A stretch of 64,000 nucleotides of DNA, from positions 4,480,001-4,544,000 of the forward strand of contig OZ001293.3 in NCBI GenBank assembly GCA_963921275.4, written 5' to 3'. This DNA is from an uncultured Hormoscilla sp. (lineage in GTDB: Bacteria; Cyanobacteriota; Cyanobacteriia; Cyanobacteriales; Desertifilaceae). Shown here piece by piece: positions 11,719 to 56,618 of the stretch. The position numbers and the translations under genes are program-made. The notes beneath the pieces were generated by a model that was not told the origin of the DNA, did not search any database, and was given only the letters and a program-made list of their open reading frames with translations. How positions within the stretch are numbered: the stretch's first letter is position 1; the number at the start of each line of letters is the position of its first letter.

Positions 11719-12589
11719 GGATGGGGTCGAGCCGGGAATCGCTTCCCGACCCTCCCTTTCGGAACCGGACTTGCGATTTTCACCGCATCCGGCTACTGGG
11801 TACTAGGCCCTTTTCATAGGTAGACTTAATAGGAATTACTTCCGTTAGCCCTTGCCGCCTGTCTTTTCTTCCCTTTCCTGGTTTAGCGAGTGGTTGTTCT
11901 GATAACCGTTAGTATCACCATTTTCAAGTCAGTTTTACCAGTTATCCATACCTTATCCTCCACTTGCGTTTCGGATTAGTTCCGTGGCTTTTTAGGATTA
12001 CTCATTCCAGCAGCTTCCTAGTATCACCGACCCACGTCAGCGCTGGCTACCCAGCATCATCTACATTACTGTAGATGTTATCCCAGGAATTACCCCGGGC
12101 ATTCGCTTCTTGGGCCATCCCTCCCCCCGTGGCTTGCGCTTAACATCTAACTTGTCCTGATGGACAGCACACGAGAGGTTACTTCGTTCCCTAACAACAT
12201 TTCGCGATACCTTTAGGTCCACACTATACCCCGGGAGCTATTTGAGTACTATATTAGCCAGAGTCTAAAACTAATACTAGCTACCATTTCCTTTTTAGGC
12301 CAGCGCATATAGCCTTATTTCGCTGGTTCCTTATAACGAGGCTTGCACATGTTTGCCTGCTCTAACCTTGGATATCTTTCCTAGCGGCGTCACCGGCTTA
12401 GGCTGCCAGTTATCCTACATTTGAGTCCTCGCTTAGCACCACGATGATGTCGCTTCGTAGCACCGAGGACCGGTGTCACCCCCGTACCTGGGGGGAGGGG
12501 AATTTAACCCCCATGCGGTCAGAGTTCCCGGCTAATGAAACCGGGCTAGCGTTCCGTGTTTGACCACGTTAGGCTAGAACGAATCGCAC
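11719..12589 (-). ncRNA. ORF-less group II intron I1 (IIB/chloroplast-like type), full length, 871 nt, intergenic and antisense to flanking genes
   Basis: The minus strand starts GTGCGATTCGTTC. D5 is AGCCGGATGCGGTGAAAATCGCAAGTCCGGTT and D6 has a bulged A (…GCTCGACCCCATCC). EBS1 AGACTC pairs perfectly with the 5' exon GAGTCT. No RT ORF. The 3' end is 11721 if the canonical AY is used. Confidence 0.93.
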
Positions 12590-12645
12590 AGACTCAAGAA
12601 ATTGGCATAGAATAAGGCTAGAAATTATCCAGCACCGAAAGATAA

Positions 12646-13368
12646 ATGAAGAAGGCAATTTACTGGTTAATGGGCGAAAAGGCTGGACGCACCATAGTCG
12701 GGACTTGGAACTGGCTGTGGGGTATCCCAGTGGAACAAGGCGGCAAGGTCGCTGTGGCAACCGCTGAAGAATCATTGCAGTCGATGCAGGAGTCGGTGCA
12801 AAAGCTGGCAAAGGCGGTGGCGACTCAGGTGGCAGCCTACGAACGGGCAAAGCAAAAGTATCAGGAGAAGGTAAAGGAATTACAGAATGCAGAAAATCAA
12901 GCGGCGATCGCCCAACGTTCTGGTAACTCAGAGGCGGCGCGGATGGCGATGGCGAAGGTGCTGCAAGTGGAGAAATTGCTGCCGCAGTTGGAATCTCAGG
13001 TGAAACAGGCGGAACAGTATGTCAATGCTTCTAAGGATAAGCTGAATCGCGAACGGATGAAGATCGAAGAGTATAAGGCCCAAATGCAAAATATGAAAGA
13101 CCTGGCGGAAATTAACGAAGCCCTGGGGGCGATCGCCAAGGTGAACAACGAGTTTGATATCGGTAGCGCCCGCTCGCAGTTTGAAACCGCCAAAAATGCT
13201 GTGGAACGCCGCAACCTGCAAGAAAGCGCTATTGCAGAATTGTCAGAGAACTCAGCGGAGAAGCTCCAGGCTGAGTTGGAACAAATGACCGCAGACGATG
13301 AAATAGCTCGTAGGCTCCAAATACTGGAAGGTTTCAGTCCTCGACAACTACCTGAAGGAGAAAACTAA
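12646..13368 (+). CDS. PspA/IM30-family coiled-coil protein
   Basis: Long coiled coil (ESVQKLAKAVATQVAAYERAKQKY…AARMAMAKVLQ); stop overlaps the start of the next gene. Confidence 0.8.
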   Translation: MKKAIYWLMGEKAGRTIVGTWNWLWGIPVEQGGKVAVATAEESLQSMQESVQKLAKAVATQVAAYERAKQKYQEKVKELQNAENQAAIAQRSGNSEAARMAMAKVLQVEKLLPQLESQVKQAEQYVNASKDKLNRERMKIEEYKAQMQNMKDLAEINEALGAIAKVNNEFDIGSARSQFETAKNAVERRNLQESAIAELSENSAEKLQAELEQMTADDEIARRLQILEGFSPRQLPEGEN

Positions 13369-14276
13369 TGGCAACCAGAAGTGGTCCTCCTCCAATTGTT
13401 TACATTCTGGCATTCCTCGTTCTAGCGGGGGTGGGTGGCTGGTTCTTTTTTGGCCGGAAACCAGCTACCAATACTGGCTCAAATACTCCAGTTGCTTCTC
13501 AAGCACCAGCCTCTAATACCTGGAGTAGTCAGTTTCCCCAACTAGCTGCCGTGCCAGGTGGCACGGTGGTGAGAGTTGATGGCTCCACCAGCATGGTGAA
13601 AATTAATTCATTTCTGAGAAATGGCTTTCAAGGGCAGTATCCGGGGACGACGGTGGCAGCTCAAGCCAATGGTTCCTCCGGAGGAATTCAGGCCCTTTTA
13701 GAGGGAAGGGTGGATATAGCCGCCATCTCTCGCCCCCTGAAGCCCCAAGAACAATCAGAAGGCTTGGTGGCAGTGCCAGTTACCAGTGACGCGATCGCCC
13801 TCGTGGTGGGAGTCGGGAATCCTTTGTCAGGCGGCTTAACCCAAGCTCAAGTCAGGGATATATTCCAAGGGCGAATTACCAATTGGTCAGTTGTCGGCGG
13901 CCCGAACAGACAAATTCGGGCGATCAATCGCCCATCCATTAGTGGTACCCATCATGCTTTTAAGCAACTGGTACTGAATGGGGGTAATTTCGGCACCACC
14001 GGGAATATCACCACAATGGATCGAGATGCTACAACTCCCATGCTGCGAGAGTTGCGCGATGATGGGATTGGCTATGCCACCTACGATCAAGTCAAAAACC
14101 AGCAAACAGTTCGTGCTGTTGCTGTTGATGGGGCAACTCCAGCCTTTTCTAGCTATCCCTATCAGCGGACTCTCTATTACGTTTACAAAAATCCACCTAG
14201 CGAGGCTGTTAAAGCTTTCTTAGGTTACGTCTTTTCGCCTCAAGGACAACAAGCTGTGGCAGCAGCTTCCTATTGA
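13368..14276 (+). CDS. PstS-like phosphate-binding protein (PBP_like_2) with N-terminal membrane anchor
   Basis: VRVDGSTSM, GSSGGIQALLEGRVDIAAISRPL, SGTH, IGYAT, YPYQRTLYY. Confidence 0.85.
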   Translation: MATRSGPPPIVYILAFLVLAGVGGWFFFGRKPATNTGSNTPVASQAPASNTWSSQFPQLAAVPGGTVVRVDGSTSMVKINSFLRNGFQGQYPGTTVAAQANGSSGGIQALLEGRVDIAAISRPLKPQEQSEGLVAVPVTSDAIALVVGVGNPLSGGLTQAQVRDIFQGRITNWSVVGGPNRQIRAINRPSISGTHHAFKQLVLNGGNFGTTGNITTMDRDATTPMLRELRDDGIGYATYDQVKNQQTVRAVAVDGATPAFSSYPYQRTLYYVYKNPPSEAVKAFLGYVFSPQGQQAVAAASY

Positions 14277-14501
14277 GGTGCGATCGCATAGCGTGTCCAG
14301 ACTTGTCCATTGGATCAGATCGGATCCCATCGCTCCGCCTCCTATGTTTTTAATCTTGAAATTTGCTGATTTTTGCTAGTGCTGGTTTCACTCAAACCAG
14401 CACGGAAAATTCAGCAACTCCTTATGCTGCAAAGATACTTAATACTTCAGACTTGATTTCGACTACAGACTTTTCACCAGTTGATAAGAAGAGGTCCGAA
14501 A

Positions 14502-14956
14502 ATGTCTACCAGAAAAAGCGGTCCGCCTCCGATCGTCTTTATCCTGTTATTTATAATTCTGGCTGGTGCTGGCTATTACTGGTTTTCTATCAGGAAACCA
14601 GAACAACTGGTGAATACAGCTACTCCAGTTACACCAACAACACCTCCCATCTCCCCACCAACTGCAGATCCCGTTCCACATTCAATATCACCACGATGGA
14701 CCGCGATGCTACCACTCCCATGCTACGAGAGTTGGGCGATGATGGGATTGGTTATGCTACCTACGATCAAGTCAAAAACCAGTCAACAGTCAGGGCTATT
14801 GCCGTTGACGGGACAACCCCCAATATGGGAAATTATCTCTATCAACGCACTCTCTATTATGTTTACAAAAATCCACCTAACCAGGCTGTTGAAGATTTCT
14901 TAGGTTACGTCTTTTCCTCTCCAGGACGACAAGCTGTCGCCGCTGCTGACTTTTGA
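14502..14956 (+). pseudogene. Second PstS-like paralog with a large internal deletion and frameshift
   Basis: N-terminus MSTRKSGPPPIVFIL and C-terminus NITTMDRDATTPMLRE…QAVAAADF match the upstream gene but lie in different frames; the middle domain is missing. Confidence 0.85.
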
Positions 14957-15044
14957 GGTGCGATCGTCATATTCACTCTTTTACCCAGAAACCCGGTATA
15001 AGCAAAAAACCGGGTTTCTTAATGAGCGTCAATTCCCAATTTGA

Positions 15045-16905
15045 TTAAATTTTATATTTGACCACTTTCGCTGGCACAAGTTCGGAAGGATTACTGGGAG
15101 ATTTTATCTTTTGCGATGCTATCTTGAACCCAGTCATTGATATTTTTTCCAACTCTTCCCTGCTTGCCATCGGAATTTTCCGATACTTACTCTCGGGAAT
15201 TATGGCAATAAGTTGAAAGTTTGCTGATGCGTCATAACCTAGGTCAATGTAGTTATAAACATTCAGCGGATTTTCTATCCCCCACATCCCCCTGATTCTC
15301 AAGTATGTTATCCCCATTGGGTCTACTTTATTGACTCTTCCTAGTTCCTTCGTTTCTGAAAACTCTACATCGGGTATTTCTGTAATCTCATTGGCGATCG
15401 TCCTCTTCAGCCTTTGATAAGTCTCCTTTTCGGCCACATAACAATTCCCATAAATCAACCACAGCAATTTTAATTGCTTCTTTTCCACACAGCCTATTGT
15501 ATAGATTATATCTTTTTCTGTCCAATCTTCACCACAAGACTTCGTTATCGTGGGATTATCTGGCAATAGCTTTGATTTTGGATAAGAACTATTTAACTCA
15601 AGTTGCGACCTATAAAAATTGGATACAAAAAGCTATGATAAAGAGAATTATTTTCAACTCTAATCCCTTAGATGTAACAGCATGAATTGACTTGGGAAAC
15701 AAATTGGTGATTCAACTAAAACAGGTTTCAACTTGTTTTCTTGTTACTTTTTATATATATTCAAAACAAGAATATTCTTTTCTTTTTGAGTTCTTTTTTC
15801 GCAAAGGTTTTAACATTATACTTGACGACTCTTTTAGTAAATCCTCTAATTGATAATCATTATAAGCTTTATCTCCATAAACTATTGAATTTGATGGTAA
15901 GTCAAAGCCAAAAGATTGCAAAACTTTAACATCATTATAACTACCAGGATCTAGATAAAATTCTATTGGCTTTCTATTTTTGTTTACCAACATATGAACT
16001 CTTAATCCATAAAAATAACGTTTTTTACTGGCAATATACCCTCGATATTTTTCCTTGTTATAAATTTGGCATCTATCAATCCTAATATTATCACATACTG
16101 GCACCGGGAAACTATCAAGAATATATTCTTGGCCCGGATTGAGCTCTTTAAATGTTTGAGCTATAACTTGGAAGAAAAACATCCAAATTGGTTCGTCAAT
16201 ATTGTGTAATCGACGATTGAACCTACTTTTACTTAACAGATTTTTTATATACTTGTGTTGGACCATAAATTGACAAGAGCGATCGTGGTGTCCTCCGAAA
16301 AAATATGCAGCAACTAATCCGACTGTCATCACTTCGGCATTGTTCATTTTTACTTGTGGATCTTCTTTTATATTTAACGCTTTTAGTAGCTCGTCACAAA
16401 GAACAAAAATTGTTGTAATCATATCTTCCATCATCTACATCCCCCAGCAATTAACTATTATTTTAGTACATTATAACCTATAAACAGCCAACCCGCCGTC
16501 TAGCACAAAAAAAATATAATTTTGTATCAAAAGCTACGAAATATCCCAAATATCTGTAAAGTCTAAGTGGGTAATTCATATTTTTTTTAATAGGTCGCAA
16601 CTTAGGTTATTTAAGGCAATTTTCGTTCTGAGTGACTCAATTTTCTTAATCTCTACTGCATCTCCCTTTTTCAAGATTATATCTGGCGGGTTATTATGAT
16701 TGCCTTGATAGTCAAACACCTCACTATATGCTTCTACCCGCTTTTGCTCATTTTCCTCATTGATGGTATCGGCAAAAGCATCCTTTATAAATACCCCTAA
16801 AGCGCTGCCCACACCGTTGATGCTGCTTTTGCCTTTGTAGTGACCTAGTAAGTCTGTGACTGGATTGTTAACTATTGTCTTGATCGCTTGTAGTATGTTT
16901 GTCAT
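15045..16905 (-). pseudogene. NgoPII-family type II restriction endonuclease interrupted by IS982
   Basis: Removing the IS and one TSD rejoins NPPDIILKKGDAVEIKKIES…IALN|SSYPKSKL; C-terminal ELGRVNKVDPMGITYLRIRGMWGIENP. Confidence 0.85.
15596..16607 (-). mobile_element. IS982-family element, copy 1 (transposase truncated by a nonsense codon at 15751)
   Basis: TIRs ACTCAAGTTGCGACCTAT / ATAGGTCGCAACTTAGGT; TSD TATTTA; near-identical to the intact copy at 40587. Confidence 0.92.
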
Positions 16906-17845: not shown

Positions 17846-19032
17846 ATGCCAGATTTAAGAGCGAAATTAGCCGAAAATTTAGGGCGTGTCATCAGTTAAG
17901 CCAAACAACAGTAGCAGCTAGGTAGATAGCACCCAAGAAATTCTGAGCCCTCTTATCGTAACGGGTGGCAATGGCTCGATATTGCTTGAGTTTGGCAAAA
18001 AAATTCTCAATCAAATGACGTGCTTTGTATAGATATTTGTCATAACGGCGTTGTTCTTTTCGATTGGATTTAGGCGGAATCACAGGTTCGCATTGCTGGG
18101 CTTCAAGACGTTTCAAAACCCGTTCGTCAACATCAGAAGCTTTGTCTGCGAGTAACGCATCAGCCTTAATATTATCAAGTAACACATCAGCCCCTTCCAA
18201 ATCGTGAGCTTGACCGGCTGTTAAATGAAAACCCGTTGGGTTCCCCAATGCGTCACAGGTCGCGTGAATTTTGGTACTCAAACCCCCTTTACGGCGTCCG
18301 ATGGCTTGGTCGCAATCTTTTTTTTTTGAGCACCTGCACTATGTTGATGAGCCCTTTATATCGTGGCATCAATCATCGCATATTCGTTATCGGCATCGGA
18401 CGCAAGTACCTTGAATACTCTTTCCCATACCCCGGATTTTGACCACCTACTATGGCGCGTATGAATTACCCTCAAGTCCCCAAATCGCTCGGGTAAGTCC
18501 CGCCAAGGTATCCCAGCTCTATATCGATACAAGACAGCATAGACAAATAAGCGGTTATCCTTAGCTGTCCCCCCCACATAACCCTCCCGACCTGGCAATA
18601 GGTCCCTGATTCTCTCCCACTGGTCATCTTTTAAAGCATAGCGACGCATTTCTCAAATTCTCCTGCTCTAACCTTTACCCTCTTAGATCACACCAATATA
18701 TCCTGGTTGTCAACTCAATCATCTGGTTATATATTTTTGGTGGGGACCCATATCGTTAATCTAACTGATGACACGCCCTAGATGAGGCGGAGTGGGAATG
18801 GCTCAAACCTCACGTGACCCGGGATGTAGTGGTAGTTGTCGTTCCACCGTTAGATTTGCTGGAGGTGGGAGAGGCCATAGCAGGCGATCTGGTATCATCA
18901 GTGCAACATTGGATTAGCGAAGAGTTGCTTGCCAAACCCACAGCCGCCCAGATAGCTGATTGGAGCGGACTGAAGCGGTTTCGGGCCTTGATCGTCGAGC
19001 CTTACGTTCTCGTGCAAGAATTGTCCTTATAG
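17846..19032 (+). pseudogene. DUF2288-like small protein interrupted by IS5
   Basis: Rejoining at the TA target gives MPDLRAKLAENL|DEAEWEWLKPHVTRDVVVVV…FRALIVEPYVLVQE. Confidence 0.75.
17882..18778 (-). mobile_element. IS5-family (IS427-like, two-ORF) element
   Basis: TIRs GGGCGTGTCATCAG / CTGATGACACGCCC; TA duplication; orfA MRRYALKDDQWERI (premature TAA at 18356), poly-A slip run, orfB …RAIATRYDK. Confidence 0.92.
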
Positions 19033-20016: not shown

Positions 20017-20103
20017 GTTAGGGGTCGAGCTGGGAATCGCTTCGGAACCCTCCCATTCGGAACCTGAAGAGCGACTTTCACCGCACACGGCTACTGGGTA
20101 GTT
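20017..20103 (-). ncRNA. Group II intron 3' remnant I2 (end of D4, D5, D6 only)
   Basis: AGCCGTGTGCGGTGAAAGTCGC…GGTTCC D5 and D6 ending GCTCGACCCCTAAC. Confidence 0.88.
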
Positions 20104-20617
20104 GGTCTTCGCCATTGGCGATCGCGTGAGGGTCGAGGTTGTTGGTGAAATAGATGTGACCCAGCTCCTGACCATTGTAGGTTCTTTTGCTAAAGCGCCA
20201 ACCTGGATTGAGTTCAATTTTGACGAAATCTTTTTTGACGCCGTTGGTGCGACCAATTTCCAGTTCTGGGGCATTGCGGTCATCGGGAACTCCCAGGAGA
20301 ACCAGATCCCCATTCCGTTCCTGGACGCGGAGACTGTATTTCAAGGCCATGTCAAGACCCGCCGTCCGGATGGAGAAGCCATTACTGTCCACATCGCGTC
20401 CGCAAATCCCAGTGAAGTCAAAATTTAGCAGTAATGGGTCTACAAGGGTTGTCCCGTCAGCTTGTGGCTTTTCACTCCAGCAAGCACGTTGGTTAGATTT
20501 TTTTTCCAGCACGAACAGTTGATAACCAACAATACCGCGAGGTGCAGCAATTGCGATAAAGTTGTCTTGGTCAACTTCCCGTTGGGCAAAAGTTGAAGCC
20601 ACAGATGGGGCGATTAC

Positions 20618-22372: not shown

Positions 22373-22966
22373 CCAATCTCACCGATTTTATCCAATAGCA
22401 CGTCAGCGCCTTGTAAGTCGTGGGCTTGGCCAGGGGTAAGATGAAATCCTGTGGGATTGCCTTGGGCAATCGCAAGTGGCATGAATCTTTGTCGATAGTC
22501 CCCCTTTACTACGGCCTATGGCTTGGGTTTCGCACGTATCTGAGGGTGTTTTTTTTGCACCCGCACGCTCGTTGATGGGCACGCAGGATGGTGGCATCAA
22601 TCGCGGCGTATTCGTTATCGGCGTCTGAGGCCAAGACATCGAATACCTGCTTCCAAACTCCCTTTTCAGACCAACGGGTATGGCGGGTATGAACAACCCG
22701 AAAATCCCCAAAACACTCCGGTAAATCCCGCCAGGGAATGCCAGCACGATATCGATATAACACGGCAGAACACGAATAATCTATTGTTCTTGGCTGTAGC
22801 GCCTGGGTCACCCTCTTTACCAGGTAAAAGGTGTTCGATCCGTTCCCACTGGTCGTCTCGCAAGCCATAGCGTCTCATATCATGCCCTCTTGATTGTTAT
22901 TGCTGGATAAGGACTCCATACCGTATCCATCTATTTCTGTCAAGCAATTTGATTGATGACACACCC
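22373..22966 (-). mobile_element. Partial IS5-family element (left end plus orfA and start of orfB)
   Basis: Near-identical to 33121-33717, including the same orfA frameshift; one TIR GGGTGTGTCATCAA. Confidence 0.88.
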
Positions 22967-23377
22967 TAAGTAATCGCGGATTTTGTGCCAATCTATTTTG
23001 CGATTGAAACTTTGCGCGCTCAAGAATGTATTGTCGCTATCCGCCAGAATTAGCACCTTTCGAGAAGTTGCCATCGTTTATTCGCCTGTTACCTTTGCTT
23101 TTGCTACTTACGATTAAAACTCATGTGGGGAAAGAGGGTTTTCTCTTCTACACTGGTGCTCGTCTCTCGATGTGCCGGTTGCTTCTGACTGTCTCGCCGA
23201 TCTCCTTACAGGCGGGCGTTCCGTTTCCTGCGGAGACCCAACCTACTGATGGTTTCTCTTCTGCCGGTAGTTTTTTTATTTGCCACCGGTTGCACGGGGG
23301 GCGATCGCCTCCGACGCTCTAGGGTTTCCAGGAGACTGTTTTCTGGGAGTGATCGGTGCTTATTGAAGGCTTTGACG

Positions 23378-23530
23378 GTTATTTACGTATAGGTATGTTT
23401 TTTAAGTATCTGGTGTAAAAATGGGGTTTCTGACCCCTTTTAGGGGCTCGTGGTCGGCTCGTGGTCGGCTCGTGGTCGGCTCGTGGTCGGATTTAAAGGG
23501 ATGCTTGGGAGCGGGAGGTTTACGCAGTAT
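23378..23530. repeat. Dispersed repeat with an internal 11-bp tandem (GGCTCGTGGTC x4); second copy at ~53671-53795
   Basis: Shared blocks GGTTATTTACGTATAGGTATGTT, TTTTAGGGGCTCGTGG, AAAGGGATGCTTGGGAGCGGGAG. Confidence 0.75.
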
Positions 23531-23959
23531 GGGGTCCCAGGAGACAAACAGCACTCCTAAGCCCTGCTGATAGTTCGGTTTGCTCGAGTACAAATACCTG
23601 AGAACTTAAGAACGAAGGATTATCCTGCGGGCTTGTGGGTTTATGCTGTAGAGGCACATGAAGTTAGCTCACCTCCAGGAGTAGAACCGATTAATTGGCG
23701 GTTATTAACCACCCATGAGGTCCTTTGCCTCGAACAAGCTCTGCAAGTCATTCAATGGTATTGCTGGGCCCAGAGAGCAACTCTTTGCCACTGTTAAAAC
23801 AGCCGGGTTAAATATTGAAGCCACTCAACTCGAATCGATAGAAGCTATTAAACGCTCTTCGCATTTTGGCCTTATCGGTCGCTGTGCGGACCCTACAACA
23901 GGTCCTTGGGCGAGATAACCCAGCTCTACCTGCTGGAGTTGCTTTCTCTAATCAGCAAC

Positions 23960-24183: not shown

Positions 24184-24354
24184 ATCAGCAACAACAATGT
24201 CTCGAACAACTTGCACCTTCCTTGGAAGGACGGACTTCATGGAGAGCAAAACCCTTACCCCCTAGCTTCTTTGTCGGGTAAGAGAGGACACGTCACCGTG
24301 CCTCCCTCCCCTAAGAACCGGACTTGACAGTTTCCCATCATCCGGCTCAAGCCT

Positions 24355-24510
24355 CTAAACCTCAGAATGTTTACCTTGACCGTTCTGGGTTGCACGATAT
24401 ATTCTCTGTCTCAGGTTTCTAACAGGCTTCAACACGAGTTTCCAATCAATGGACCCCCAGTCTAAAGAGCGTTCCTTCATTCCGATGTCATTGCTGACCC
24501 TATCTTTCAT
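24355..24510 (-). pseudogene. N-terminal remnant (51 aa) of a group II intron-encoded RT/maturase in D4 of I3
   Basis: [45 protein letters not shown] resembles the W..IDW…V..L..RI.RA N-terminus of chloroplast-like IEPs. Confidence 0.8.
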
Positions 24511-24975
24511 GTCGGTTCGATTCCTTTACAAGTTTTCTATCGTTGGAGACCTGCTGAAGTCTGCCATCTTTCGATGTAGGGCAAATCTTGAACCCCTATC
24601 CCTAGCATTACCAAGGGCTTTCGCTTTTTCTAGCATCCTTTACCCTCTAGGTAGTTCCGTCTTCCTTAGGGTTGACCTACTCATATCATCGACCTGACCT
24701 GAGAACCTATAGGGTTTACCCTGTTCCGTACATTTAACCTTCAACCGATTCGGATTCCACCTATATTCCGGTGAGGATTTTGCTCTCTCGTTATTAGCCC
24801 AAGGTACTGCTAATAACTTACTCACTTGCCTTTTGGCTAGACTGTATCAGCCTTATTTCACTCTTCAGACATAACGGAATTTGCAGTGATTCACAAATGT
24901 TAACCCTTTTCGGTTTTCCCCTTGCCCTTTTGCCGATTTCGGCTCTCAGTCGGAGGGCTTTCATGCCTTGCATTC

Positions 24976-25356
24976 ATTAGGGGTCGAGCTGTCCCTCGCG
25001 GGACAACCCTCCCGTTCGGAACCGTGCATGCGACTTTCACCGCACACGGCTACTGGGTACCAGGCCCTTTTCATGGGTAGGATTACTGGGGATTACTCCC
25101 GTTGTCCCTTACTACTTGCATGTTTGCCCCTTTCCTGGTTGGTGAGTGGCGCTGCCAGAAAACCTTTAGGATCACCATTTACACATCCGTTTTACCAGTA
25201 ATACATTCCGAAATCCTCAACTCGCTTGCGCTGACGCTGTGGACGGGCTTATGACATTTTAAGGCTACTTATATCAGTAGTTTCCTGATATCACCGACCC
25301 GCGTCAGCGTATCCGTGGGCATTACCCCAGGCATTAGCTTCTCGGGCCATCTTTCC
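24976..25356 (-). ncRNA. 5'-truncated ORF-less group II intron I4 nested in D1 of I3
   Basis: J2/3-D3 (GGAAAGATGGCCCGAGAAGCTAATGCC), D4, D5 AGCCGTGTGCGGTGAAAGTCGCATGCACGGTT, end GCTCGACCCCTAAT. Confidence 0.88.
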
Positions 25357-28783: not shown

Positions 28784-30227
28784 ATGTCTCTGTGCGATTC
28801 GTTCTAGCCTAACGTGGTCAAACACGGAACGCTAGCCCGGTTTCATTAGCCGGGAACTCTGACCGCATGGGGGTTAAATTCCCCTCCCCCCAGGTACGGG
28901 GGTGACACCGGTCCTCGGTGCTACGAAGCGACATCATCGTGGTGCTAAGCGAGGACTCAAATGTAGGATAACTGGCAGCCTAAGCCGGTGACGCCGCTAG
29001 GAAAGATATCCAAGGTTAGAGCAGGCAAACATGTGCAAGCCTCGTTATAAGGAACCAGCGAAATAAGGCTATATGCGCTGGCCTAAAAAGGAAATGGTAG
29101 CTAGTATTAGTTTTAGACTCTGGCTAATATAGTACTCAAATAGCTCCCGGGGTATAGTGTGGACCTAAAGGTATCGCGAAATGTTGTTAGGGAACGAAGT
29201 AACCTCTCGTGTGCTGTCCATCAGGACAAGTTAGATGTTAAGCGCAAGCCACGGGGGGAGGGATGGCCCAAGAAGCGAATGCCCGGGGTAATTCCTGGGA
29301 TAACATCTACAGTAATGTAGATGATGCTGGGTAGCCAGCGCTGACGTGGGTCGGTGATACTAGGAAGCTGCTGGAATGAGTAATCCTAAAAAGCCACGGA
29401 ACTAATCCGAAACGCAAGTGGAGGATAAGGTATGGATAACTGGTAAAACTGACTTGAAAATGGTGATACTAACGGTTATCAGAACAACCACTCGCTAAAC
29501 CAGGAAAGGGAAGAAAAGACAGGCGGCAAGGGCTAACGGAAGTAATTCCTATTAAGTCTACCTATGAAAAGGGCCTAGTACCCAGTAGCCGGATGCGGTG
29601 AAAATCGCAAGTCCGGTTCCGAAAGGGAGGGTCGGGAAGCGATTCCCGGCTCGACCCCATCCAACCATTGCCGACCTAGAACAACTCCAAACCCAATTGG
29701 CTGATGCCCATCTTGATTACAAGATGGAATTAGTCGATGGTAAAATTATCATTATGGGACTTTCAGATTATCTTTCTGAAGAAATCATCGCTCGATTAAT
29801 CACTTTTCTCAATATCTGGATACTTCCCCGCAAGTTGGGACGAGTCACTGGTTCTTCTGCTGGCTTCAGACTGCCCGATGGCAACTTGCGCGGACCTGAT
29901 GTCTCTTTTGTCCCCGCTGAGAAAATGCGTCAATCTCCTAGGAGTTTTGCGGAAATTGTACCAGACTTGATGTTTGAAGTTAGGTCTTCTACAGATAATG
30001 TTAGACCACTATTACAGAAAATCCAGAGATTTATCGAATTGGGGACGCAAGTTGGCATATTTGTAGACCCCAAAAATTTGACCGTAACTGTTTATCGTCC
30101 TACTGCCGAACCTATTCTGCTCAAAGATGATGATATCTTAACTATACCCGAATTCTTGCCCGGTTGGGAATTGCCCATTGACCAAATCTGGCCTCCAGTT
30201 TTTGCACCAGAAAATATTCAACCGTAA
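28784..30227 (+). CDS. Uma2/DUF820-family endonuclease split by intron I5 (exon 1 28784-28791; exon 2 29663-30227)
   Basis: GGAG RBS, then ATG TCT CT | A ACC ATT GCC gives MSLTIADLEQLQ…ELVDGKIIIMG…GFRLPDGNLRGPDVSF…PDLMFEVRS. Confidence 0.8.
28792..29662 (+). ncRNA. ORF-less group II intron I5, full length, apparently identical to I1
   Basis: GTGCGATTCGTTC … GCTCGACCCCATCC; same length, and by eye the same sequence as the reverse complement of 11719-12589. Confidence 0.93.
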
Positions 30228-30381: not shown

Positions 30382-31210
30382 TTATGAATCTTTCCTGACT
30401 TTAACAATGGGCATGTCTTCAGGTGCGATCTCCTGGAACCCTAACTTCTTCAGTTTATTGAGGGCTTTTTCTGCTGGAGAATTATCTTCTTCCGCTGGTG
30501 CAACCGCCGCTGTTTCCCAAGTCTGGACGAGTTCAGCTAAGGCGTATTCTAATTGCGCCCCCGGATCTAATGTTACCCAACCTTCGGAGGTCAGTTCCCG
30601 CAGTTCAAAGTGCAGGTGCGGTCCTGTGGAATAGCCGCTGCTGCCCACACTGCCGATTATACTGCCTTGCTTGACTTCTTCTCCAGGTTGGACGAAGATT
30701 TCTGATAGGTGCGCGTACAGGGTTTGTTGAAGGGGTTTCTCTGGTTGGGCATGTTCTAGCACAACTGATAACCCATAGCCTTTCAGGGCGTCCGCGATTG
30801 CGACTTTTCCGGCCAATGCTGCTAACACTGGGGTCCCCGATATCCGTGCCGTGGTGGAACTGTTCCGATCCTGAGATCGGATGGGTCCGCCAACCAAACA
30901 AGGAAGTAATCGGTGAGGGAATTGATAAGGGAAAGATGATGCTATCATTGCCACGATCGGGACGGAGGTTGGGTCGAATCAGCTGATAGTAACTGCGACC
31001 TATGGGCGTTGCATCCCCATATTCGATCTCACTGGGACTGTAACTTGCTGGTCCGAGATTTACTTCCCCCCCTGGTGATTTTTGGCCTTGGCAAGGCCCG
31101 CTGATGCTGCGGCCTCCATACCGGGATGGGAGCTGATTTGGGACGCCAAACCGGTGGCTGGTAACTTGTCCTGGATCTTACGGTCACTGGTGCTGGTGGC
31201 GGGCGGAGCC
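30382..31210 (-). pseudogene. M23 peptidase (NlpD-like), frameshifted and 5'-truncated
   Basis: ITSLFGWRTHPI…HHGTDIG and TPVLAA…TLYAHLS…STGPHLHFE lie in different frames. Confidence 0.85.
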
Positions 31211-33092: not shown

Positions 33093-33120
33093 TCCTTAGT
33101 CTATGACTTTTTTAAGGCTA

Positions 33121-34001: not shown

Positions 34002-35387
34002 GGTCGGGGTCGAGCTGTCCCTCGCGGGACAATCCTCCCATTCGGAACCTGAAGAGCGACTTTCACCGCACACGGCTACTGGTTGGTAAACCCTTGTCAC
34101 GGGTAGGATTACTAGGGATTACTCCCGTTGTCCCTTGCCCTATGAAATATAGCCCCTTTATGGTCAGTCATGAACTAGTTGAGTACCTAACTCCGGAAGG
34201 TTTACGGGGGAGAACTAGAAAACCACTATGACCGTTCTTTACTAACAGGTGCCCGTATGGGGCCTCTAAATTTTTTACCCGGTTAGGATTTCAGTCCATC
34301 ATTACTACCTAGTGTTGCCACTGGTTAAGCACGTTTAGAGGGCTACTATCTCCTAGAGCTTTTTACCATATCCGTCCTACGTCTGCATATCCACAGGCAT
34401 TACCCCGGGCATTAGCTTCTTAGGACCTCCCTCCCCACGCGGGCATGCGCTAGGCGCTGCGCGCACGCTACGACGCACATCTGACTTGTCCATCTGGACA
34501 GCACCGCTCTTGTCCGGAACGTTCCCTGGTATCATTTCACGAGGCTTTTAGGTCTCCCCTATACACCGGCAGTCATTTCGGGTACGATATCAGTGACTTT
34601 CACCGCACACGGCTACTGGGTAGTTGGTCCTTGTCACTGGTAGGTAACTTCGGGATTACTCCCGTTGTCCCTCGTCTCATGAGATTTGGCCCCTTGAGCT
34701 TATCCATCTCTGACAGGTTTCCCCCGAGCTGTAGGCATATTTAGGGCTACTTTTACCCAAGACTTCCAACTATCACCGACCGACGTCTGCATATCCCAGG
34801 CGTTACTCCGGGCATTTGCTTCTTAGGCCATCTTTCCCATTCGCGGCTTGCGCTTCACATCTGACTGGTCCTTTAGGACAGTACACGAAGGGTTACTTCG
34901 TTCCCTGGTCTCATTTCACGATGCCTTTAGGCCCCTACTTTTCCCCGGCAGTTATTTGGGTACAATGTTAGCCAATTCCCTAACTAACACTAACTGCATT
35001 AACTTTTGTTCCAGCGCATTAAGCCTTATTTCGCTAGTTGGGTTTAACGAGGTTTACATAGGTTCGCTTGTTCTAGCCATGGACATCATCGAGCGCGAAG
35101 TTACCGGCTTAGGCTGCCAGCTATCCTACATTTAAGTCCTCGCTCAGTACCACGGTGATGTTACTCCGCAGCGCCGAGGACCGGTGTTACCCCCGTACCT
35201 GGGGAGGGGGAATTAAACCCCCATGATTACCAGAGTTCCTAGTTTCCTAGGCCAGCGTTCCGTATATGACTACGTTAGGCTGGAACTCATCGCACGGGAA
35301 TTTAACCCTCATGGCACCAAAGTTACCTGGCACATAAGACCAGGCCCGATTTTCACCATTACTGGTTTACATCAGAACGAGTCGCAC
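34002..35387 (-). ncRNA. ORF-less group II intron I7, outer member of a twintron, internally deleted
   Basis: 5' GTGCGACTCGTTC at 35387 (92 nt before I8); 3' part ~34595-34002 with D1 end, D2-D6, and terminus GCTCGACCCCGACC. Confidence 0.85.
34595..35295 (-). ncRNA. ORF-less group II intron I8 nested in D1 of I7; lost the 3' half of D5 and D6
   Basis: Starts GTGCGATGAGTTCC; EBS1 GGGAAT pairs with the preceding ATTCCC of I7; breaks off after AGCCGTGTGCGGTGAAAGTC. Confidence 0.87.
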
Positions 35388-37262: not shown

Positions 37263-38900
37263 GTGATTACTACGAACGCTTATAGGAATGCCTTGACTCT
37301 GGCAATTGTGAAAATCGGGGGTTCTTTGATTACCGATAAGTCTCAACCTTTTACTTTGCACGATCGCAATTTATCTACGATTATTACCGAAATTGCTGCT
37401 ATTAAACAATTTCAACCTGACTTGCGATTGATTCTTATCAACGGTAATGGCTCTTTTGGACATGCTACCGCCCAAAAGTTTAGTACCGATCGTGGTTTTG
37501 CTGACGCAACAGTATCACTTGACATGCGATCTAATATAATAATATAACTCAAGTTGCTACCTATTAAAAAAAAATGGATTACCCACTTAGAGATTTCCGA
37601 TATTTTTGGTAGGATACAGAAATATATTATTTTTATGCTATCAGTAGCCATCCCTGTTTATAGGTTATAATGTACTAAAATAACAGTTGATTGCGGTAGA
37701 TTATGGAAAATATGATTATAACAATTTTTGTTCTTGGCGATGAACTGCTAAAAGCACTCAATATCAAAGAAGATCCACAAGTAAAAATGAATAATGCGGA
37801 GGTGATGACAGTAGGATTAGTTGCTGCTTATTTTTTGGGAGGGCGATAGAGATCGTCAATTTATGGCAGAACATAACTAGATCAAAAATCTGTTAAGTAA
37901 AAGTAGGTTTAATCGTCGAAAACATAAGATTGATGAAACAATTGTATGGGAGTTTATTTCAAGCAATGGCTCAATCGTTCGCTAAATCCGGGGCAAGAAT
38001 ATATTATCGATAGTTTCCCTGTGCCAGGATGTGACAACATTAGGATCGATAGATGTAAAATTTATACAGAAGAAGAATATAGAGGATATATCGCCAGCAA
38101 AAAACGTTATTTTTATGGATTGAGAGTTCATATGTTAGTCAACAAAACTGGTAAACCAATAGAATTTTATTTTGCTCCTGGTAGTTGTAATGATGCGAAA
38201 AAATTGCTTTGCCATCAAAGGTTTATGGGGACAAAATTTATAACAATTATCAATTAGAAGATTTACTAAAAAAGTCAATGAATATAATGTTCAAACATTT
38301 GCGTAAAAAGAACGCGGGTTCAATATGTACAGAACGTAACTAGAAAACAAGTAGAAACATGCTTTAGTTGAATAACTAATTTGTTTCCTAAGTCCTGCTG
38401 TTACATCCAAAGGGTTCGAGTTAAAATTAATTCTATTTATCATAGCTTTTTGTGTTCAATTTTTATAGGTCGCAACTTAAGTTAATATATTATATCGCGC
38501 ATGTCAAGTGATACTGCGGGGTTCTGTTGCTTGCAAAAAGATACCGCCCAACTAAATCCCTTGCTGGTCGATCGCCTCAGCAAGCATTCCTGCTATTAGT
38601 TTTACTCCCGGAAATGTTTTTTGGACAGACGATAGCCAAGATTTTTATGGTAACATAGAAATCTTATAACATTGCTTGGTGCGAAATTTTGTCCAGGTTT
38701 TATATGTGGAGGCAATTATCGACTTGAAGTTAAACGGTACGACCATTTCTTCTGACGTTATCTTGCAGTTACTGGCAGCATATTTTGCTAACTATCCTGA
38801 TTTCACTATGCACAAGTTAGTCAATGCTGGCAAGGGGGGGTTTTAGATGATAAAGGACAAGTAATTCCGCAAATTACCGATTTTTCCGGAACGGTGGAAA
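37263..38900 (+). pseudogene. Amino-acid-kinase family protein (isopentenyl phosphate kinase-like), disrupted
   Basis: IVKIGGSLITDKSQP and LILINGNGSFGH N-terminus; degraded continuation after 38516. Confidence 0.65.
37547..38482 (+). mobile_element. Old, degenerate IS982-family element, copy 3
   Basis: TIR-like ends, TSD TAATATA, multiply frameshifted transposase homologous to copy 4. Confidence 0.85.
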
Positions 38901-39628: not shown

Positions 39629-41912
39629 TCAACCCTTGTGGAACTCATAGACACCCAAAATTGAGTGAGCAGCCCCCAATCCTTGTTGGAGGTTCCACTC
39701 TAGATCCCTTAGTAAAAAGGCCAGTTGGGGTTCGATTAAATTGGATCGCGGGTCATCGAGGTGGAATGCTGGTGCTTGTTGCACCCCATGGCGAATCCCG
39801 CGAATGGCTTGCTGCACGACTGGTCGATAACTAACCGGGGGTTCTGCCACTAACTTTGGGGGGTTCCGCCACTCAGCCAGGGCATCCATGCAAGCATAAA
39901 CCAAGGAATTCCAGGCATCTTGCAGGGTGTAGAAAAATCGGTTCAAGTGTAGCGTAGTCCCATGAGGTTTGTACTCGAAAATTAGCTGAGACAAGTCCGT
40001 GCGGCAATTAGTTTCGTGCAAAGAGTTGACCGCAGCGCGGATGGGAGGCGCGTCGGGATTGTATTCGCGAGTATCCATATGACGACCGACCAAAATGGAG
40101 CGATCGCACAGCCGTCGGCGGTAAACCTTCACCCCTTTGCTAGCAACTGTCTTGTTCACGAACCGGTCCAACTCTTCGCCACCCCAGTAGCGAATGGGAA
40201 ACCGCTCCACCTCAATCTCCTTACTAACGTTGGGACCATAGATATAAGACATCGAGTACATTTTTTGGGTTGACTCATTTTCCTGGGAGTTCTCCCAGTA
40301 GCAGGGCCATTCATAGGAATAGCGACCGAGGAAATCACCGACAAAAATTGCTCTTTCCCCCATATGGTCGCAAATATCGGACAGAACTTTAGCCAAGTTG
40401 GGGTCATTCAGGTGGGATAACGACGCATAAGAGGAAAAGTAGACGTCGTAAGCGAATTCTCCCGCTGGCAGTTGAAGTCCCTCATTGAGATCGGTCACCG
40501 CAAACTCAGCTTGGGGGTGGTTGCGGTGGAGATCTTTTGCCTTGTCAATCATCGCTGGACTGATATCCAAGCCTTTGTAACAACTAACCTAAGTTGCGAC
40601 CTATTAAAAAAAATATGAATTACCCACTTAGACTTTACAGATATTTGGGATATTTCGTAGCTTTTGATACAAAATTATATTTTTTTTGTGCTATACGGCG
40701 GGTTGGCTGTTTATAGGTTATAATGTACTAAAATAATAGTTAATTGCTGGGGGATGTAGATGATGGAAGATATGATTACAACAATTTTTGTTCTTTGTGA
40801 CGAGCTACTAAAAGCGTTAAATATAAAAGAAGATCCACAAGTAAAAATGAACAATGCCGAAGTGATGACAGTCGGATTAGTTGCTGCATATTTTTTCGGA
40901 GGACACCACGATCACTCTTGTCAATTTATGGTCCAACACAAGTATATAAAAAATCTGTTAAGTAAAAGTAGGTTCAATCGTCGATTACACAATATTGAGG
41001 AACCAATTTGGATGTTTTTCTTCCAAGTTATAGCTCAAACATTTAAAGAGCTCAATCCGGGTCAAGAATATATTCTTGATAGTTTCCCGGTGCCAGTATG
41101 TGATAATATTAGGATTGATAGATGCCAAATTTATAACAAGGAAGAATATCGAGGGTATATTGCCAGTAAAAAACGTTATTTTTATGGATTAAGAGTTCAT
41201 ATGTTGGTAAACAAAAATGGAAAGCCAATAGAATTTTATCTAGATCCTGGTAGTTATAATGATGTTAAAGTTTTGCAATCTTTTGGCTTTGACTTACCAT
41301 CAAATTTAATAGTTTATGGAGATAAAGCTTATAATGATTATCAATTAGAGGATTTACTAAAAGAGTCGTCAAGTATAATGTTAAAACCTTTGCGAAAAAA
41401 GAACTCAAAAAGAAAAGAATATTCTTGTTTTGAATATATACAAAAAGTAACAAGAAAACAAGTTGAAACCTGTTTTAGTCGAATCACAAATTTGTTTCCC
41501 AAGTCAATTCATGCTGTTACATCTAAGGGATTAGAGTTAAAAATAATTCTCTTTATCATAGCTTTTTGTATCCAATTTTTATAGGTCGCAACTTGAGTTA
41601 ACAACTAATGTCTTGATAGTCCAGTACCTTCTCAATTTTGGTATCCAATGTAGCCTGGGTTTGAGGCAAGCTCGTAAGGATATTCAGACCTTCACCAGCA
41701 CCGCATCCGAGATCCAGCACGCGAATGCCAGTACCGGACTGTCGCTTGCTGGCAACCAAGGGACTGATAAAATGGCCGATCAAATTACGGCTAAAGCGAT
41801 CTTCCCAATGCCGCCTGACATTATCATGCTTCCCGAATAGACCAGCTGAATGCAGATCGTAGGCTCCAATAGCCACTGCCTTAGCGTAGTTTTTGAGAAC
41901 CTCTTGTTTCAT
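39629..41912 (-). pseudogene. Class I SAM-dependent methyltransferase interrupted by IS982
   Basis: VLDLGCGAGEG in the 5' part; GLDISPAMIDKA in the 3' part; junction at TSD TAACAACTA. Confidence 0.85.
40587..41598 (+). mobile_element. IS982-family element, copy 4, with intact 274-aa transposase (40760-41584)
   Basis: TIRs; 9-bp TSD TAACAACTA; DDE motifs ILDSFPV, YGDKAY, RKQVETCFS. Confidence 0.95.
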
Positions 41913-42294
41913 ATAGGGGGGGCCTTTATTGTTAATGTCTAACAGACCCAATATACTTGAATTGCTGGGAGCTACACAAGCATCCACCTACGGGTGTGGT
42001 CATGCCTTTGTCGATCGCTCAGACTCCACCAATAACCTGGTTTCGCAGGAGAAACCAGATTTCTGGTCCCACGCGACTACCTCCTCTACCAACTGGTGCA
42101 AGACCGCACCCTCCACCCACGTGCAAGGGTTTCTTAACGCGCTCATCTAGAATTGCTGTTGTCAATAACAAACCATAAAGCATAGTTATTATGCTAAAAC
42201 CCCTGCTTATTGACAATAGGCGCTTACCCTGGAATTCAATGACATATCTAGTTGCATTCTTATCTAACTATCCACCCGTTCACGTTCAATACAT

Positions 42295-43680: not shown

Positions 43681-43890
43681 ACAGGCGAGACGCCCCTCCT
43701 ACGGGAACTCCCACAGGCGAGACGCCCCTCCTACGGGAACTCCCACAGGCGAGACGCCCCTCCTACGGGAACTCCCACAGGCGAGACGCCCCTCCTACGG
43801 GAACTCCCACAGGCGAGACCCCTCCTACGTCTCCGACAGGCGAGACGCCCCTCCTACGCTGACTCCCACAGGCGAGACGCCCCTCCTACG
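43681..43890. repeat. 32-bp tandem repeat, about 6-7 copies
   Basis: Unit ACAGGCGAGACGCCCCTCCTACGGGAACTCCC; no spacers. Confidence 0.9.
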
Positions 43891-50466: not shown

Positions 50467-50751
<285 letters not shown>

Positions 50752-53307: not shown

Positions 53308-54029
53308 GGACTGTATGCTTTGCCCACTGGGAATCTAAGATGGTCCGGTGGATGCTGTCCACCAGGGTTTATTGTACTGCGATCGCTGCCCGCCACTTTG
53401 CAAAAACGAGAAAAGATGCTATATCTTTCACTACAAGCATTATAAGCACCTCTGTACCTCGTTTCCAGGCGATCGCCTGGAAACGAGTTCTCTTGTAGGT
53501 GGCGATCGAGATGTCAGGATTTTGCTAGGAATGATCGAGCTATGTCTGCTACCAACAACACCAACAATACTTTGCGTCTGTACCAATACCTCTCGGTGCG
53601 GTGCGATGCTAACCGCGTTTCGGTGGAGACTGTTTTCTGGATGTGACCGGTGCTTAAAGAAGGTTTTTCCGGTTATTTACGTATAGGTATGTTCTTGACC
53701 CATTTTAGGGGCTCGTGGGTGGCTCGTGGGTGGCTCGTGGTCGGATCATGGTGGGCTTTAAAGGGATGCTTGGGAGCGGGAGCTTTATGCAGTATTGGGT
53801 AATTTTTTTTGTCGATCGCTATCGGGGCGATCTTTGCTTCTAGTACAGCCGGTGATTTATGAGGCTTTGGTTCGGTGCCGGTCTGTTCTGAGAATCTGAT
53901 TGCTTAATGACCGGCGATTGGCCTCAAGTACGGGTAAAACAATTGCCCAACTTCATTGCCATGCAAGGGCTGTAAAATAAGTGGCAAGGTTGCCGATCGC
54001 CCTTTACTCAATCCACAGGAGACTTCATC

Positions 54030-54705: not shown

Positions 54706-54900
54706 GGCTCGGGTGCGGCTCGGGTGCGGCTCGGGTGTGGCTCGGGTGCGGCTCGGGTGTGGCTCGGGTGCGGCTCGGGTGCGGCTCGGGTGTGGCTCGG
54801 GTGCGGCTCGGGTGTGGCTCGGGTGCGGCTCAACCTCGGCTCAACCTCGGCTCAACCTCGGCTCAACCTCGGCTCGACCTCGGCTCAACCTCGGCTCGGG
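54706..54900. repeat. 11-bp tandem array: ~11x GGCTCGGGTG(C/T), then ~6x GGCTCAACCTC
   Basis: Direct inspection. Confidence 0.9.
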
Positions 54901-54953
54901 TATGGCTACTGGCGTGTAAGCAATTTCGCTGAGGGCTGTTGCTTTGCGATCGC

Positions 54954-55220
54954 CTAAGATCTGGGATGGCTGCGAACGTGGTAGTCTTCTCCGATAACTT
55001 CCAGAATGTCACCGGGATGAAGTAAAGGATAGATGCTGTGTCGCTTTTCCCACACGCCTCTTCCCGTGCCTGGGTCCGGACAGGTGATGCGGTAGGTATT
55101 CGCTAGCACTCGCTCTACTTGGCAATTCGGTGGTAGAATCAGAGAAATGAGGGTGCAGGTGGTATCGCTGTCGATCATGTTCGGATTCTGAGAACAAAAG
55201 ATGATAAAGCAGTAGGGCAC
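54954..55220 (-). CDS. Small hypothetical protein
   Basis: Open 88-aa frame with plausible composition; no motif recognised. Confidence 0.4.
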   Translation of the reverse strand: MPYCFIIFCSQNPNMIDSDTTCTLISLILPPNCQVERVLANTYRITCPDPGTGRGVWEKRHSIYPLLHPGDILEVIGEDYHVRSHPRS

Positions 55221-55337
55221 CTTCCATCGCCCACCACCAGTAACTTCCTGTTGGGGCAGGTTGAGATGAGCACTTGCCCATTACTAATCTAAAGGCAAAG
55301 CCTTTCATATAGGATAAAGTATGCCAGCAGACTTGCC

Positions 55338-56618
55338 ATGAGTTACTGTATCAACCCCCAATTGCCCCAATCCTCAAAACTCTGACAACCAGCTATTTGG
55401 CGCTGCTTGCGGTTCGGAATTACTCCTAGAAGGACAATATCGCATCCTGGGCAAACTAGGCGGCGGTGGTTTTGGCACTACCTATGAGGTAGATGACCCG
55501 AAACAACTGCCGGTATAAAGGAGAGACCTAAAAGCCTCGCGAAATGATACTAGGGAACGAAGTAACCCCTCGTGAGCTGTCCAGTAGGACCAGTCAGATG
55601 TGAAGCGTAAGCCACGAGTGGGAAAGATGGCCCGAGAAGCTAATGCCTGGGCGGTGTCTGGAGCATGCCGTGTCCTTCAGGACAAGAGCCCGGTGTCTGG
55701 AGCGTACCGATGGCGCTACGCTGGGCGCGCAGCGCATGTCCTTCAGGACAAGAGTACGCTCCAGACACCGGAGCGGAAGACGCCGGGTAATGCCCATGGA
55801 TACGCTGACGCGGGTCGGAGATATCAGGAAGCTACTGGTTGAAAGTAACCCTAAAAGGTTATAAACCATGCACAATTAGTGACATAGGGATAAATAACTG
55901 GTAAAACGAGCGAGTAAATGGTGATCCCTTAAGGTTTCTCGGCTGCACCAATCACCAACCAGGGAAGGGGCCAAATTGCAAGTAGTAAGGGCCAACGGTG
56001 AGCAATCCCTAGTAAGCCTATCCATGACAACGGACCTGGTACCCAGTAGCCGGATGCGGTGAAAATCGCACGTCCGGTTCGGAATGGGAGGGTTGGGAAG
56101 CGATTTCCAGCTCGACCCCGACTGGAACGGCAAAGGTTTTGAAAGTCCTGCATCTGAACGAACCCAAAGCTATCTCCCTATTTCAGCAAGAAGCAAAGGT
56201 ATTAGAACAGTTGCATCATTCAGGGATTCCCAAGGTTGACCCTGATGGCTATTTTACCTTTGTTCCCAGAAGCAGCCAAGAGCCCCTGCACTGCTTAGTC
56301 ATGGAAAAAATTGAGGGAGAAGATTTGCAGAATTGGCTAGAAAAACGAGGACGCCCTATCAGTCAAAAGTTAGCACTCAAATGGCTGACTCAGCTAGTAG
56401 AGATTCTCGATGAGGTACATCAGAAGCATTTTTTCCATCGGGATATCAAACCGCCCAATATCATGCTGCGCCCCAGCGGACAACTAGCATTGATTGATTT
56501 CGGCACGGTTAAAGAAATCACGGCTATCTACATGGCAAATGTGAATGCAGGACAGCCAGGTACTGTTGTTTATTCTAGGGGTTATGCGCCAACGGAGCAA
56601 GAAAACGGTCATACATTG
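55338..56618 (+). pseudogene. Ser/Thr protein kinase with N-terminal Cys motif; frameshifted, split by intron I9, truncated by an IS
   Basis: MSYCINP…LGGGGFGTTYEVDD | GTAKVLKVL…HRDIKPPNIM…LIDFG…GYAPTEQ. Confidence 0.88.
55498..56123 (+). ncRNA. 5'-truncated ORF-less group II intron I9
   Basis: End of D1 (GGGAACGAAGTAA), D2, D3, D4, D5 AGCCGGATGCGGTGAAAATCGCACGTCCGGTT, end CTCGACCCCGACT. Confidence 0.9.

Follow-up and report, generated by a model that had tools for sequence, protein, structure and literature searches.

Non-autonomous group II introns, probably mobilized in trans, in a 64-kb stretch of a Hormoscilla genome

We analysed a stretch of 64,000 nt from an uncultured Hormoscilla sp. 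(OZ001293.3; hereafter the window, in whose coordinates the positions of all elements are given) and found in it a family of group II introns without open reading frames (ORFs). The introns are ribozymes of ~750–980 nt with six domains (IIB-like) and no ORF in domain IV, and the window holds nine insertion events. Eight of the elements, lettered below, are bona fide ORF-less group II introns of one family, and the ninth, G, is a remnant of a different lineage. Intron elements occupy 5,818 nt, or 9.1% of the window, and are invisible to ORF-based annotation. Judging from sequence comparison, the family probably consists of non-autonomous retroelements mobilized in trans, as in Thermosynechococcus elongatus. 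The marks of retromobility are identical copies with different flanks, covariation of the exon-binding sites (EBSs) with the 5′ flanking DNA, twintrons (introns within introns), and 5′-truncated copies with exact 3′ ends.

In the route that we propose, the EBS1 and EBS2 loops would pick an insertion site by base pairing with the 5′ exon DNA, a pairing that is itself observed. The RNA would then reverse-splice into the site and be copied into DNA by a reverse transcriptase (RT)/maturase encoded elsewhere, presumably provided in trans by RT-bearing introns at other places in the genome, such as are seen in relatives. Where cDNA synthesis stopped early, the resulting copies would be without their 5′ part and exact at the 3′ end, as are D, E, F, G and H. 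Homing of copy C into a conserved hairpin in domain 1 (D1) of its own family would have made an intron within an intron, and insertion sequences (ISs) and point mutation would have damaged the copies further.

Detection of the elements

The Rfam model Intron_gpII (RF00029; gathering score 40 bits) covers domains D5–D6. It scores above gathering at five of the nine sites, 11721–11797(−), 24273–24350(−), 24976–25054(−), 29584–29660(+) and 56045–56122(+), with E-values from 6e-9 to 2e-5; a sixth D5 site, 33014–33091(+), reaches only 29.9 bits, below that score. At 20.05, 34.05 and 34.6 kb Rfam gave no match even at E ≤ 10. The D5 sequences there align column for column with those of the remaining sites.

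Relatives were collected with a 27-nt D5 pattern scan of a genome collection, which gave at least 28 loci (L numbers below). All those listed come from four Hormoscilla assemblies, and the 28 listed loci correspond to 30 distinct pattern matches, since L009 and L019 overlap; statements about relatives refer to the matches listed. A family profile hidden Markov model (HMM) built from 12 full-length relatives recovers the sites that Rfam missed, namely H (20118–20019, E = 9e-24), I (34595–34003, E = 4e-112) and the half D5 of C (34703–34595, E = 2e-22). Rfam, in-register alignment and the family HMM together establish as real all nine D5 sites that an earlier note on this DNA had listed. A tenth piece, J (35387–35296), had been overlooked.

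The gathering score of a second Rfam model, group-II-D1D4-2 (RF01999; 36 bits), was not reached, the best scores being 25.7 bits for C and 22 bits for A and B, and so the family lies outside the coverage of the Rfam D1–D4 models. The single architecture proposed earlier for eight of the sites is borne out by the 12-sequence alignment, which contains the motifs GGGAACG closing D1, GGCCC..GAAGC.AATGCC in D3 and CCCAGTAGCC at the D4/D5 junction. The several diverged subfamilies are real as well: apart from A and B, which are identical, copies in the window are 61–84% identical pairwise. D5 is degenerate in H and I, loop-mutated in D and halved in C.

An RT domain was found in none of the 53 window ORFs scanned (picked from 83 of at least 100 aa, with overlapping shadow ORFs omitted), and a tblastn search of the window with a Hormoscilla intron RT gave two weak matches only, both within G. 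The window thus lacks an RT; the earlier note had reported none in the elements. Its description of these as ORF-less holds for the eight family members and is too simple for G, which retains a remnant of RVT_N.

Ribozyme fold and target-site pairing

The consensus fold of 12 aligned, non-redundant full-length copies has the six domains D1–D6. Scored on the same alignment from which it was predicted, a procedure that favours it somewhat, the fold has 96.6% paired cells versus 84.2% in shuffles, and compensatory changes at 109 of 198 pairs (56.5 in shuffles, 0 of 500 of which reach the observed value; 21–32 in controls with slid partners). D5, taken as a 34-nt hairpin, keeps the AGC triad, and pairs in both D5 and D6 show compensatory changes. 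D6 has a bulged A at alignment column 1149, seven nt from the end. All 23 full-length copies among the matches listed begin GTGCGA, and most relatives end in ...CCCCGAC or ...CCCCTAC, where group II introns are expected to end in AY.

The loop taken as EBS1 was extracted via the alignment and compared with the last six exon nucleotides. It pairs with its own 5′ flank at 6/6 positions in 15 of 24 insertions and at 5/6 or more in 23 of 24; among non-cognate intron/flank pairs (n = 490) the corresponding figures are 4.5% and 39.6%. The predicted D5/D6, the six-domain fold with a 5′ GUGYG, and the pairing of EBS with intron-binding site (IBS) are among the features by which group II ribozymes are recognized, and as read from the sequence the family has each of them.

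Two intact and identical copies

Only A and B, among the copies in the window, hold all six domains. A (28792–29661, +) and B (11720–12589, −) are intact ORF-less introns of 870 nt and are 100% identical. A spans HMM positions 1–944 (E = 3e-252), begins GTGCG, carries the Rfam D5–D6 match at 29584–29660 with 46.4 bits, and has a domain IV of ~245 nt without an ORF. The site of A is 84 nt downstream of ribE, with the start of a Uma2-family ORF directly adjoining the intron; the site of B is between fabD and a PspA/IM30 gene. For A, the 3′ end comes from the alignment and is good to ±1–2 nt; because the A subfamily ends ...CCCCATCC, the exact final nucleotide (29660–29662) is not fixed.

The identity of A and B ends exactly at the intron ends: 3 of 11 upstream nucleotides differ, and downstream the two diverge after 2–3 nt. 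Identity that stops there fits insertion, not duplication. Moreover, the 5′ flank of B pairs perfectly with the intron, at 6/6 positions with EBS1 and at 6/6 with EBS2. These findings argue against a reading in which the family is a fossil, mobile once and no longer, with A and B made identical by recent gene conversion or a small duplication. The ribozyme structure, still under selection across subfamilies, argues in the same direction. What such a reading has in its favour is that seven of the nine window elements are broken, that the window is without an RT, that the type of homing site used by C is unoccupied in both A and B, and that bacterial intron copies in general, in the excerpted account of a review, are mostly truncated or inactivated and lie amid other mobile DNAs (PMC4424553). 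We regard an extinct family as unlikely.

With seven of nine elements in the window being dead remnants, the earlier description of the family as expanding was overstated. A and B look like two young, apparently intact copies, and apart from these two, which are possibly live, the swarm in the window is largely a graveyard.

A is sense-oriented and stands directly before the Uma2-family ORF, in which no ATG, GTG or TTG lies between the end of A and the start of the Pfam match; seven of the nine elements, moreover, are co-oriented with the adjacent or host gene. Both observations would suit intact copies that the host keeps as splicing-only or regulatory elements, for example controlling the Uma2-family ORF, and that are not selfish. 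B, however, is antisense to both of its neighbours. An in-frame join of the ATG upstream of A to the Uma2-family ORF requires a 3′ end at 29659 or 29662, and with the end that the alignment suggests (29660–29661) the two are out of frame. The copies in relatives, furthermore, lie at non-orthologous sites. A role kept by the host therefore seems to us highly improbable, and we return to mobilization in trans.

Truncated copies and the genes they meet

D, E, F, G and H, five remnants independent of one another, have lost the 5′ part and kept the exact 3′ end, with HMM matches starting at 120, 344, 469, ~232 and 845, respectively. Bacterial 5′-truncated copies were reportedly described by Dai and Zimmerly in 2002.

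The shortest copy, H (20019–20118, −), of ~100 nt, comprises D5–D6 only (HMM 845–944). Upstream of tRNA-Arg(CCT), it forms a fusion with the 3′ end of a DUF3747 gene, and the 3′ strand of its D5 has the same mispairing block as that of I. F (24977–25356, −; HMM 469–944, E = 2e-67; Rfam 43.9 bits) extends from D3 to D6 and sits 90 nt downstream of an aldo/keto-reductase gene. Insertion of F into G was considered and rejected, since zero G sequence lies upstream of F. D (31181–33091, +) is truncated from ~intron nt 120 and is the copy with the sub-threshold Rfam score. Its domain IV is broken by a 1017-bp IS at 31819–32834, and the HMM match, in pieces 120–498, 496–683 and 684–945, resumes exactly across the IS.

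E (55497–56122, +; HMM pieces 344–499 and 497–945; Rfam 50.1 bits), truncated from ~HMM 344, is the clearest of the five cases. It interrupts a Ser/Thr protein-kinase gene, with both in the same orientation and the 5′ junction of the intron somewhere in 55496–55508. The 5′ piece of this gene (55342–55496, +) shows by translation a glycine-rich loop (GKLGGGGFGTTYEVDD); Pfam gives zero matches for the 58-aa piece alone. The 3′ piece (56123–56690, +) reads GTAKVLKVL... right after E, matches Pkinase positions 30–160 (E = 3e-19) and is itself cut by an IS4-type transposase gene (56620–57699, −). In-frame joins of the two same-strand kinase pieces across E are possible. Since E starts at HMM 344 it cannot fold or splice, and the simplest reading is that incomplete cDNA synthesis made it dead on arrival, later deletion being the alternative.

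D and E each have in domain III a GC-rich, partly palindromic insert (31568–31667 and 55651–55784) with TCCTTCAGGACAAGAG, a sequence that occurs three times in the window, only in these inserts, where 0.08 occurrences are expected. Either a small hairpin element or a stem extension confined to one subfamily might account for the insert.

G (24273–24976, −; start approximate) is the remnant of a different lineage. Its D5–D6 gives the Rfam score of 58.5 bits, its match to the family HMM is weak (232–532, 40 bits), and its identity to the main family in D1 is 48–50%. A 51-aa stretch just upstream of D5 (24355–24510, −) matches Pfam RVT_N positions 1–30 at 29.5 bits (cut-off 28.1). The weak D1 from position 232 together with the RVT_N remnant before D5 makes G a 5′-truncated, ORF-deleted relic of an RT-bearing intron. 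Hence an RT-bearing intron was once present in this genome.

Among the nine insertion events only E clearly splits a gene. A abuts the start of the Uma2-family ORF and H stands at the 3′ end of the DUF3747 gene; of the remaining six, B, F, G, D and the J–I element are intergenic and C lies within another intron. IS elements, which in the window interrupt an NgoPII-type restriction gene, the kinase gene and intron D, are at least as damaging here. With one gene broken in nine insertions and such IS damage beside it, the idea that the introns are a major gene-disrupting agent finds no support in the window.

A collapsed twintron

Read along the minus strand, J, C and I follow one another and represent two introns. 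J (35296–35387, −; HMM 1–95, E = 1e-12) is the 5′ part of the outer intron, nt 1–95, with GTGCGAC starting at 35387. C (34595–35295, −; HMM 1–632 and 782–890) is the inner intron, running from nt 1 to mid-D5 with its 3′ end deleted. I (34003–34595, −; HMM 332–945) is the 3′ part of the outer intron. The 5′ flank of C, GGGTTAAATTCCC, is D1 hairpin sequence of the outer intron (J); EBS1 of C (GGGAAT) pairs with it perfectly, and EBS2 pairs too. C thus appears to have homed into a fellow family member, giving a twintron. The joint between C and I has a TCAC microhomology, read straight from the sequence; a later deletion across it would have removed the tract from D5 of C to ~nt 325 of the outer intron, killing both. 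The half D5 at 34.6 kb and the D5 at 34.05 kb, which the earlier note counted as separate elements, are real, and with J they make up this one collapsed twintron.

Relatives and a possible source of reverse transcriptase

The relatives in other Hormoscilla assemblies extend this picture. None of the loci listed is the window itself; among them L014 matches it best, with 91.9% identity over the intron only, its flanks being unmatched. The 23 full-length copies are 754–979 nt long and all ORF-less, and identity between subfamilies is 61–79%. The two long copies, L010 and L012, contain transposases instead of an RT. In each of two assemblies one subfamily has at least six copies, located at different sites; they are identical in one of the assemblies and 99.8–100% identical in the other, a further argument against an extinct family. 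Secondary fragments in the relatives' loci mostly show 5′ loss with the 3′ end kept, and further twintrons occur as nested copies in L009/L019, L025 and L016. A blastn search of a plasmid collection with copy A gave zero matches.

In the twintrons of L009/L019 (3152–4948) and L025 (2605–4407) a full ORF-less copy stands reversed inside a family member. The insertion is at HMM ~320, beside the EBS1 hairpin of the host member, and the breakpoints of I (332) and E (344) are nearby.

In L013, L016, L022 and L027, RT-bearing introns and ORF-less copies are no more than 3 kb apart, and in L016 an ORF-less copy lies inside an RT intron. L022 encodes an intact intron-encoded protein (IEP) of 608 aa with RVT_N, RVT_1, GIIM and HNH domains, and L013, L016 and L027 hold RT fragments. 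Compared with solved structures, the L022 IEP matches 6me0 chain C best (E = 7.5e-115); we take this structure to be the TeI4h ribonucleoprotein complex of T. elongatus, and on that assumption the RT-bearing introns of the relatives are of the Thermosynechococcus TeI4h type. The intron RNA of L022 matches the family HMM at positions 1–497 (D1–D3) with 81 bits. It is plausible that the proteins of RT-bearing introns may recognize the ORF-less family.

The earlier note had itself raised an alternative in which the ORF-less copies arose independently of one another, each by a recent deletion from an ORF-bearing intron. G, with its ~30 RVT_N residues directly before D5, is just such a derivative, and it is the only one. 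For the main family this reading is already contradicted. The ORF-less D4 is common to eight members in the window and to the 23 full-length relatives, in subfamilies as far apart as given above, and so the ORF was either lost once long ago or never there. No ORF remnant is detected in D4 of the family by tblastn with the L022 IEP (window at E ≤ 10, loci at E ≤ 1e-3), and, of the 30 distinct D5 matches listed, none belongs to an intron whose own domain IV holds an RT ORF. Independent recent deletions are accordingly a most improbable origin for the family.

Several points weigh against mobilization in trans. The RT-bearing introns are 52–58% identical to the family in D1–D3, versus 77–84% among the ORF-less subfamilies, and the family's D4 has no detectable ORF remnant. 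There is no IEP gene in the window, so that the driver in this organism is one we infer only. The 5′ flank of A pairs at 4/6 positions with EBS1 and at 4/6 with EBS2, and with such poor pairing A looks like an insertion at an ectopic site. Gene conversion between older copies could likewise have made A and B identical, and the 5′-truncated copies could have arisen by later deletion. The relatives' loci, finally, were seeded on D5, which biases primary matches towards copies that retain the 3′ end. Even so, we hold mobilization in trans to be the probable reading. The earlier interpretation is therefore partly supported: it was right on the identity of the elements, and probably on how they move.

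Other features of the window

The window comes from a phycobilisome-bearing host, with apcE/A/B at 58.4–63 kb, plsX-fabH-fabD at 8–11.7 kb and an ATP-synthase operon on the minus strand at 46–52 kb. Mobile DNA is dense in it, comprising copies of the 1017-bp IS and several other transposase fragments. The 1017-bp IS, which encodes a DDE_Tnp_1_3 transposase, is found at 15593–16609, 31819–32834 and 40585–41601 (−) with 98.8–99.3% identity, and a diverged fourth copy (~77% identity) lies at 37545–38485. The first copy splits the NgoPII-type restriction endonuclease gene (15045–15566 and 16576–16905). An ORF at 41598–41987 was considered as the missing N terminus of an IS-adjacent methyltransferase and rejected, Pfam giving zero matches. 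Fragments of IS4/IS5 type (DUF4096, DDE_Tnp_1) lie at 22373–22968 and 33119–33715 (−), which are 99% identical, and at 17880–18652 (~68%).

Repeats of other kinds are also present. A cadherin-repeat surface protein gene at 1–4850 has a 285-nt unit repeated ~13 times; it is spread over three consecutive ORFs and may be frame-broken. Tandem arrays of 11-nt units at 54706–54897 and 23445–23490 consist of GGCTCGGGTGC (11.5 copies), CGGCTCAACCT (6.5 copies) and GGCTCGTGGTC (4.2 copies), and the non-coding stretches 23331–23535 and 53625–53800 are related (76% identity). A 32-nt unit occurs 6.7 times between two M16 peptidase genes (43681–43890). A PBP-like solute-binding protein gene has a second copy of its 3′ end (14004–14290) ~400 nt downstream (14684–14971), with 83% identity.

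Discussion

In eukaryotes, short and long interspersed elements (SINEs and LINEs) form pairs in which the non-autonomous element borrows the RT of its partner, leaving 5′-truncated, dead-on-arrival copies and many diverged subfamilies. The Hormoscilla introns invite this analogy, which is not one of homology and differs in that the ribozyme targets its site by RNA–DNA pairing and can splice itself out. A bolder reading, which we advance tentatively and to which we give somewhat less than an even chance, is that they form an old, self-perpetuating ORF-less lineage whose target specificities have diversified, giving many EBS subfamilies across several Hormoscilla-like species, and that parasitizes distant RT introns and homes into conserved hairpins of its own kin. 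If so, it would be to bacteria what a long-lived SINE family is to eukaryotes, not one of the short-lived bacterial deletion derivatives that reviews describe. The review of 2015 cited above, in excerpt, has ORF-less group II introns as rare in bacteria and usually found beside related IEP-bearing introns, most intron copies as truncated and among other mobile DNA, and non-mobile derivatives as short-lived (PMC4424553).

A literature search found no paper mentioning Hormoscilla together with group II introns. Intron-rich cyanobacteria as such are known. Trichodesmium erythraeum, described in the excerpted text as a filamentous marine cyanobacterium with much non-coding DNA, has group II introns and a twintron (PMC4649490), as does the Hormoscilla window, a likeness by description only. 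Miura et al. 2022 report that some cyanobacteria carry over 100 group II introns, most of them of CL type, and that ORF-less introns have increased in certain genomes; the excerpts of that paper name Arthrospira and Phormidiaceae as intron-rich, not Hormoscilla (PMC8919778).

The closest parallel is T. elongatus, for which excerpts of the published study give 28 related introns, 17 of them ORF-less, 8 ORF-bearing and 3 fragments, with EBS-defined families, twintrons and one intron with an IS (PMC2882425). In that organism an IEP has been shown to mobilize an ORF-less intron (Mohr, Ghanem & Lambowitz 2010, PMC2882425). The Hormoscilla elements resemble the TeI3 (ORF-less) and TeI4 (ORF-bearing) introns of class CL/IIB1 in being cyanobacterial and in having many ORF-less copies beside fewer RT-bearing ones. 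They also share with them EBS-defined subfamilies, identical copies at different sites, homing twintrons, fragments and an IS within an intron. In other respects the two differ, as far as the excerpted account goes. The T. elongatus introns are 85–100% identical (PMC2882425), whereas Hormoscilla subfamilies are 61–79% identical. In the TeI3 introns clear remnants of both ends of the ORF, N- and C-terminal, meet at a breakpoint that all share, whereas none is detectable in the Hormoscilla D4; 25 of the 28 T. elongatus introns are intact, whereas the copies in the Hormoscilla window are mostly dead. Finally, the RT-bearing introns seen in Hormoscilla are only distantly related to the ORF-less family (52–58% identity in D1–D3), unlike those of T. 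elongatus.

The pattern thus fits one already known from other intron-rich cyanobacteria, with three differences: the divergence of the subfamilies, a D4 without ORF remnant and the distance of the RT introns. After T. elongatus, the worked-out exception, Hormoscilla is a second cyanobacterial lineage, with a much more diverged and all-ORF-less family that has recent identical copies, twintrons and 5′-truncated insertions. It offers independent material on how one RT comes to serve many introns in trans, a step that figures in models of how spliceosomal introns arose.

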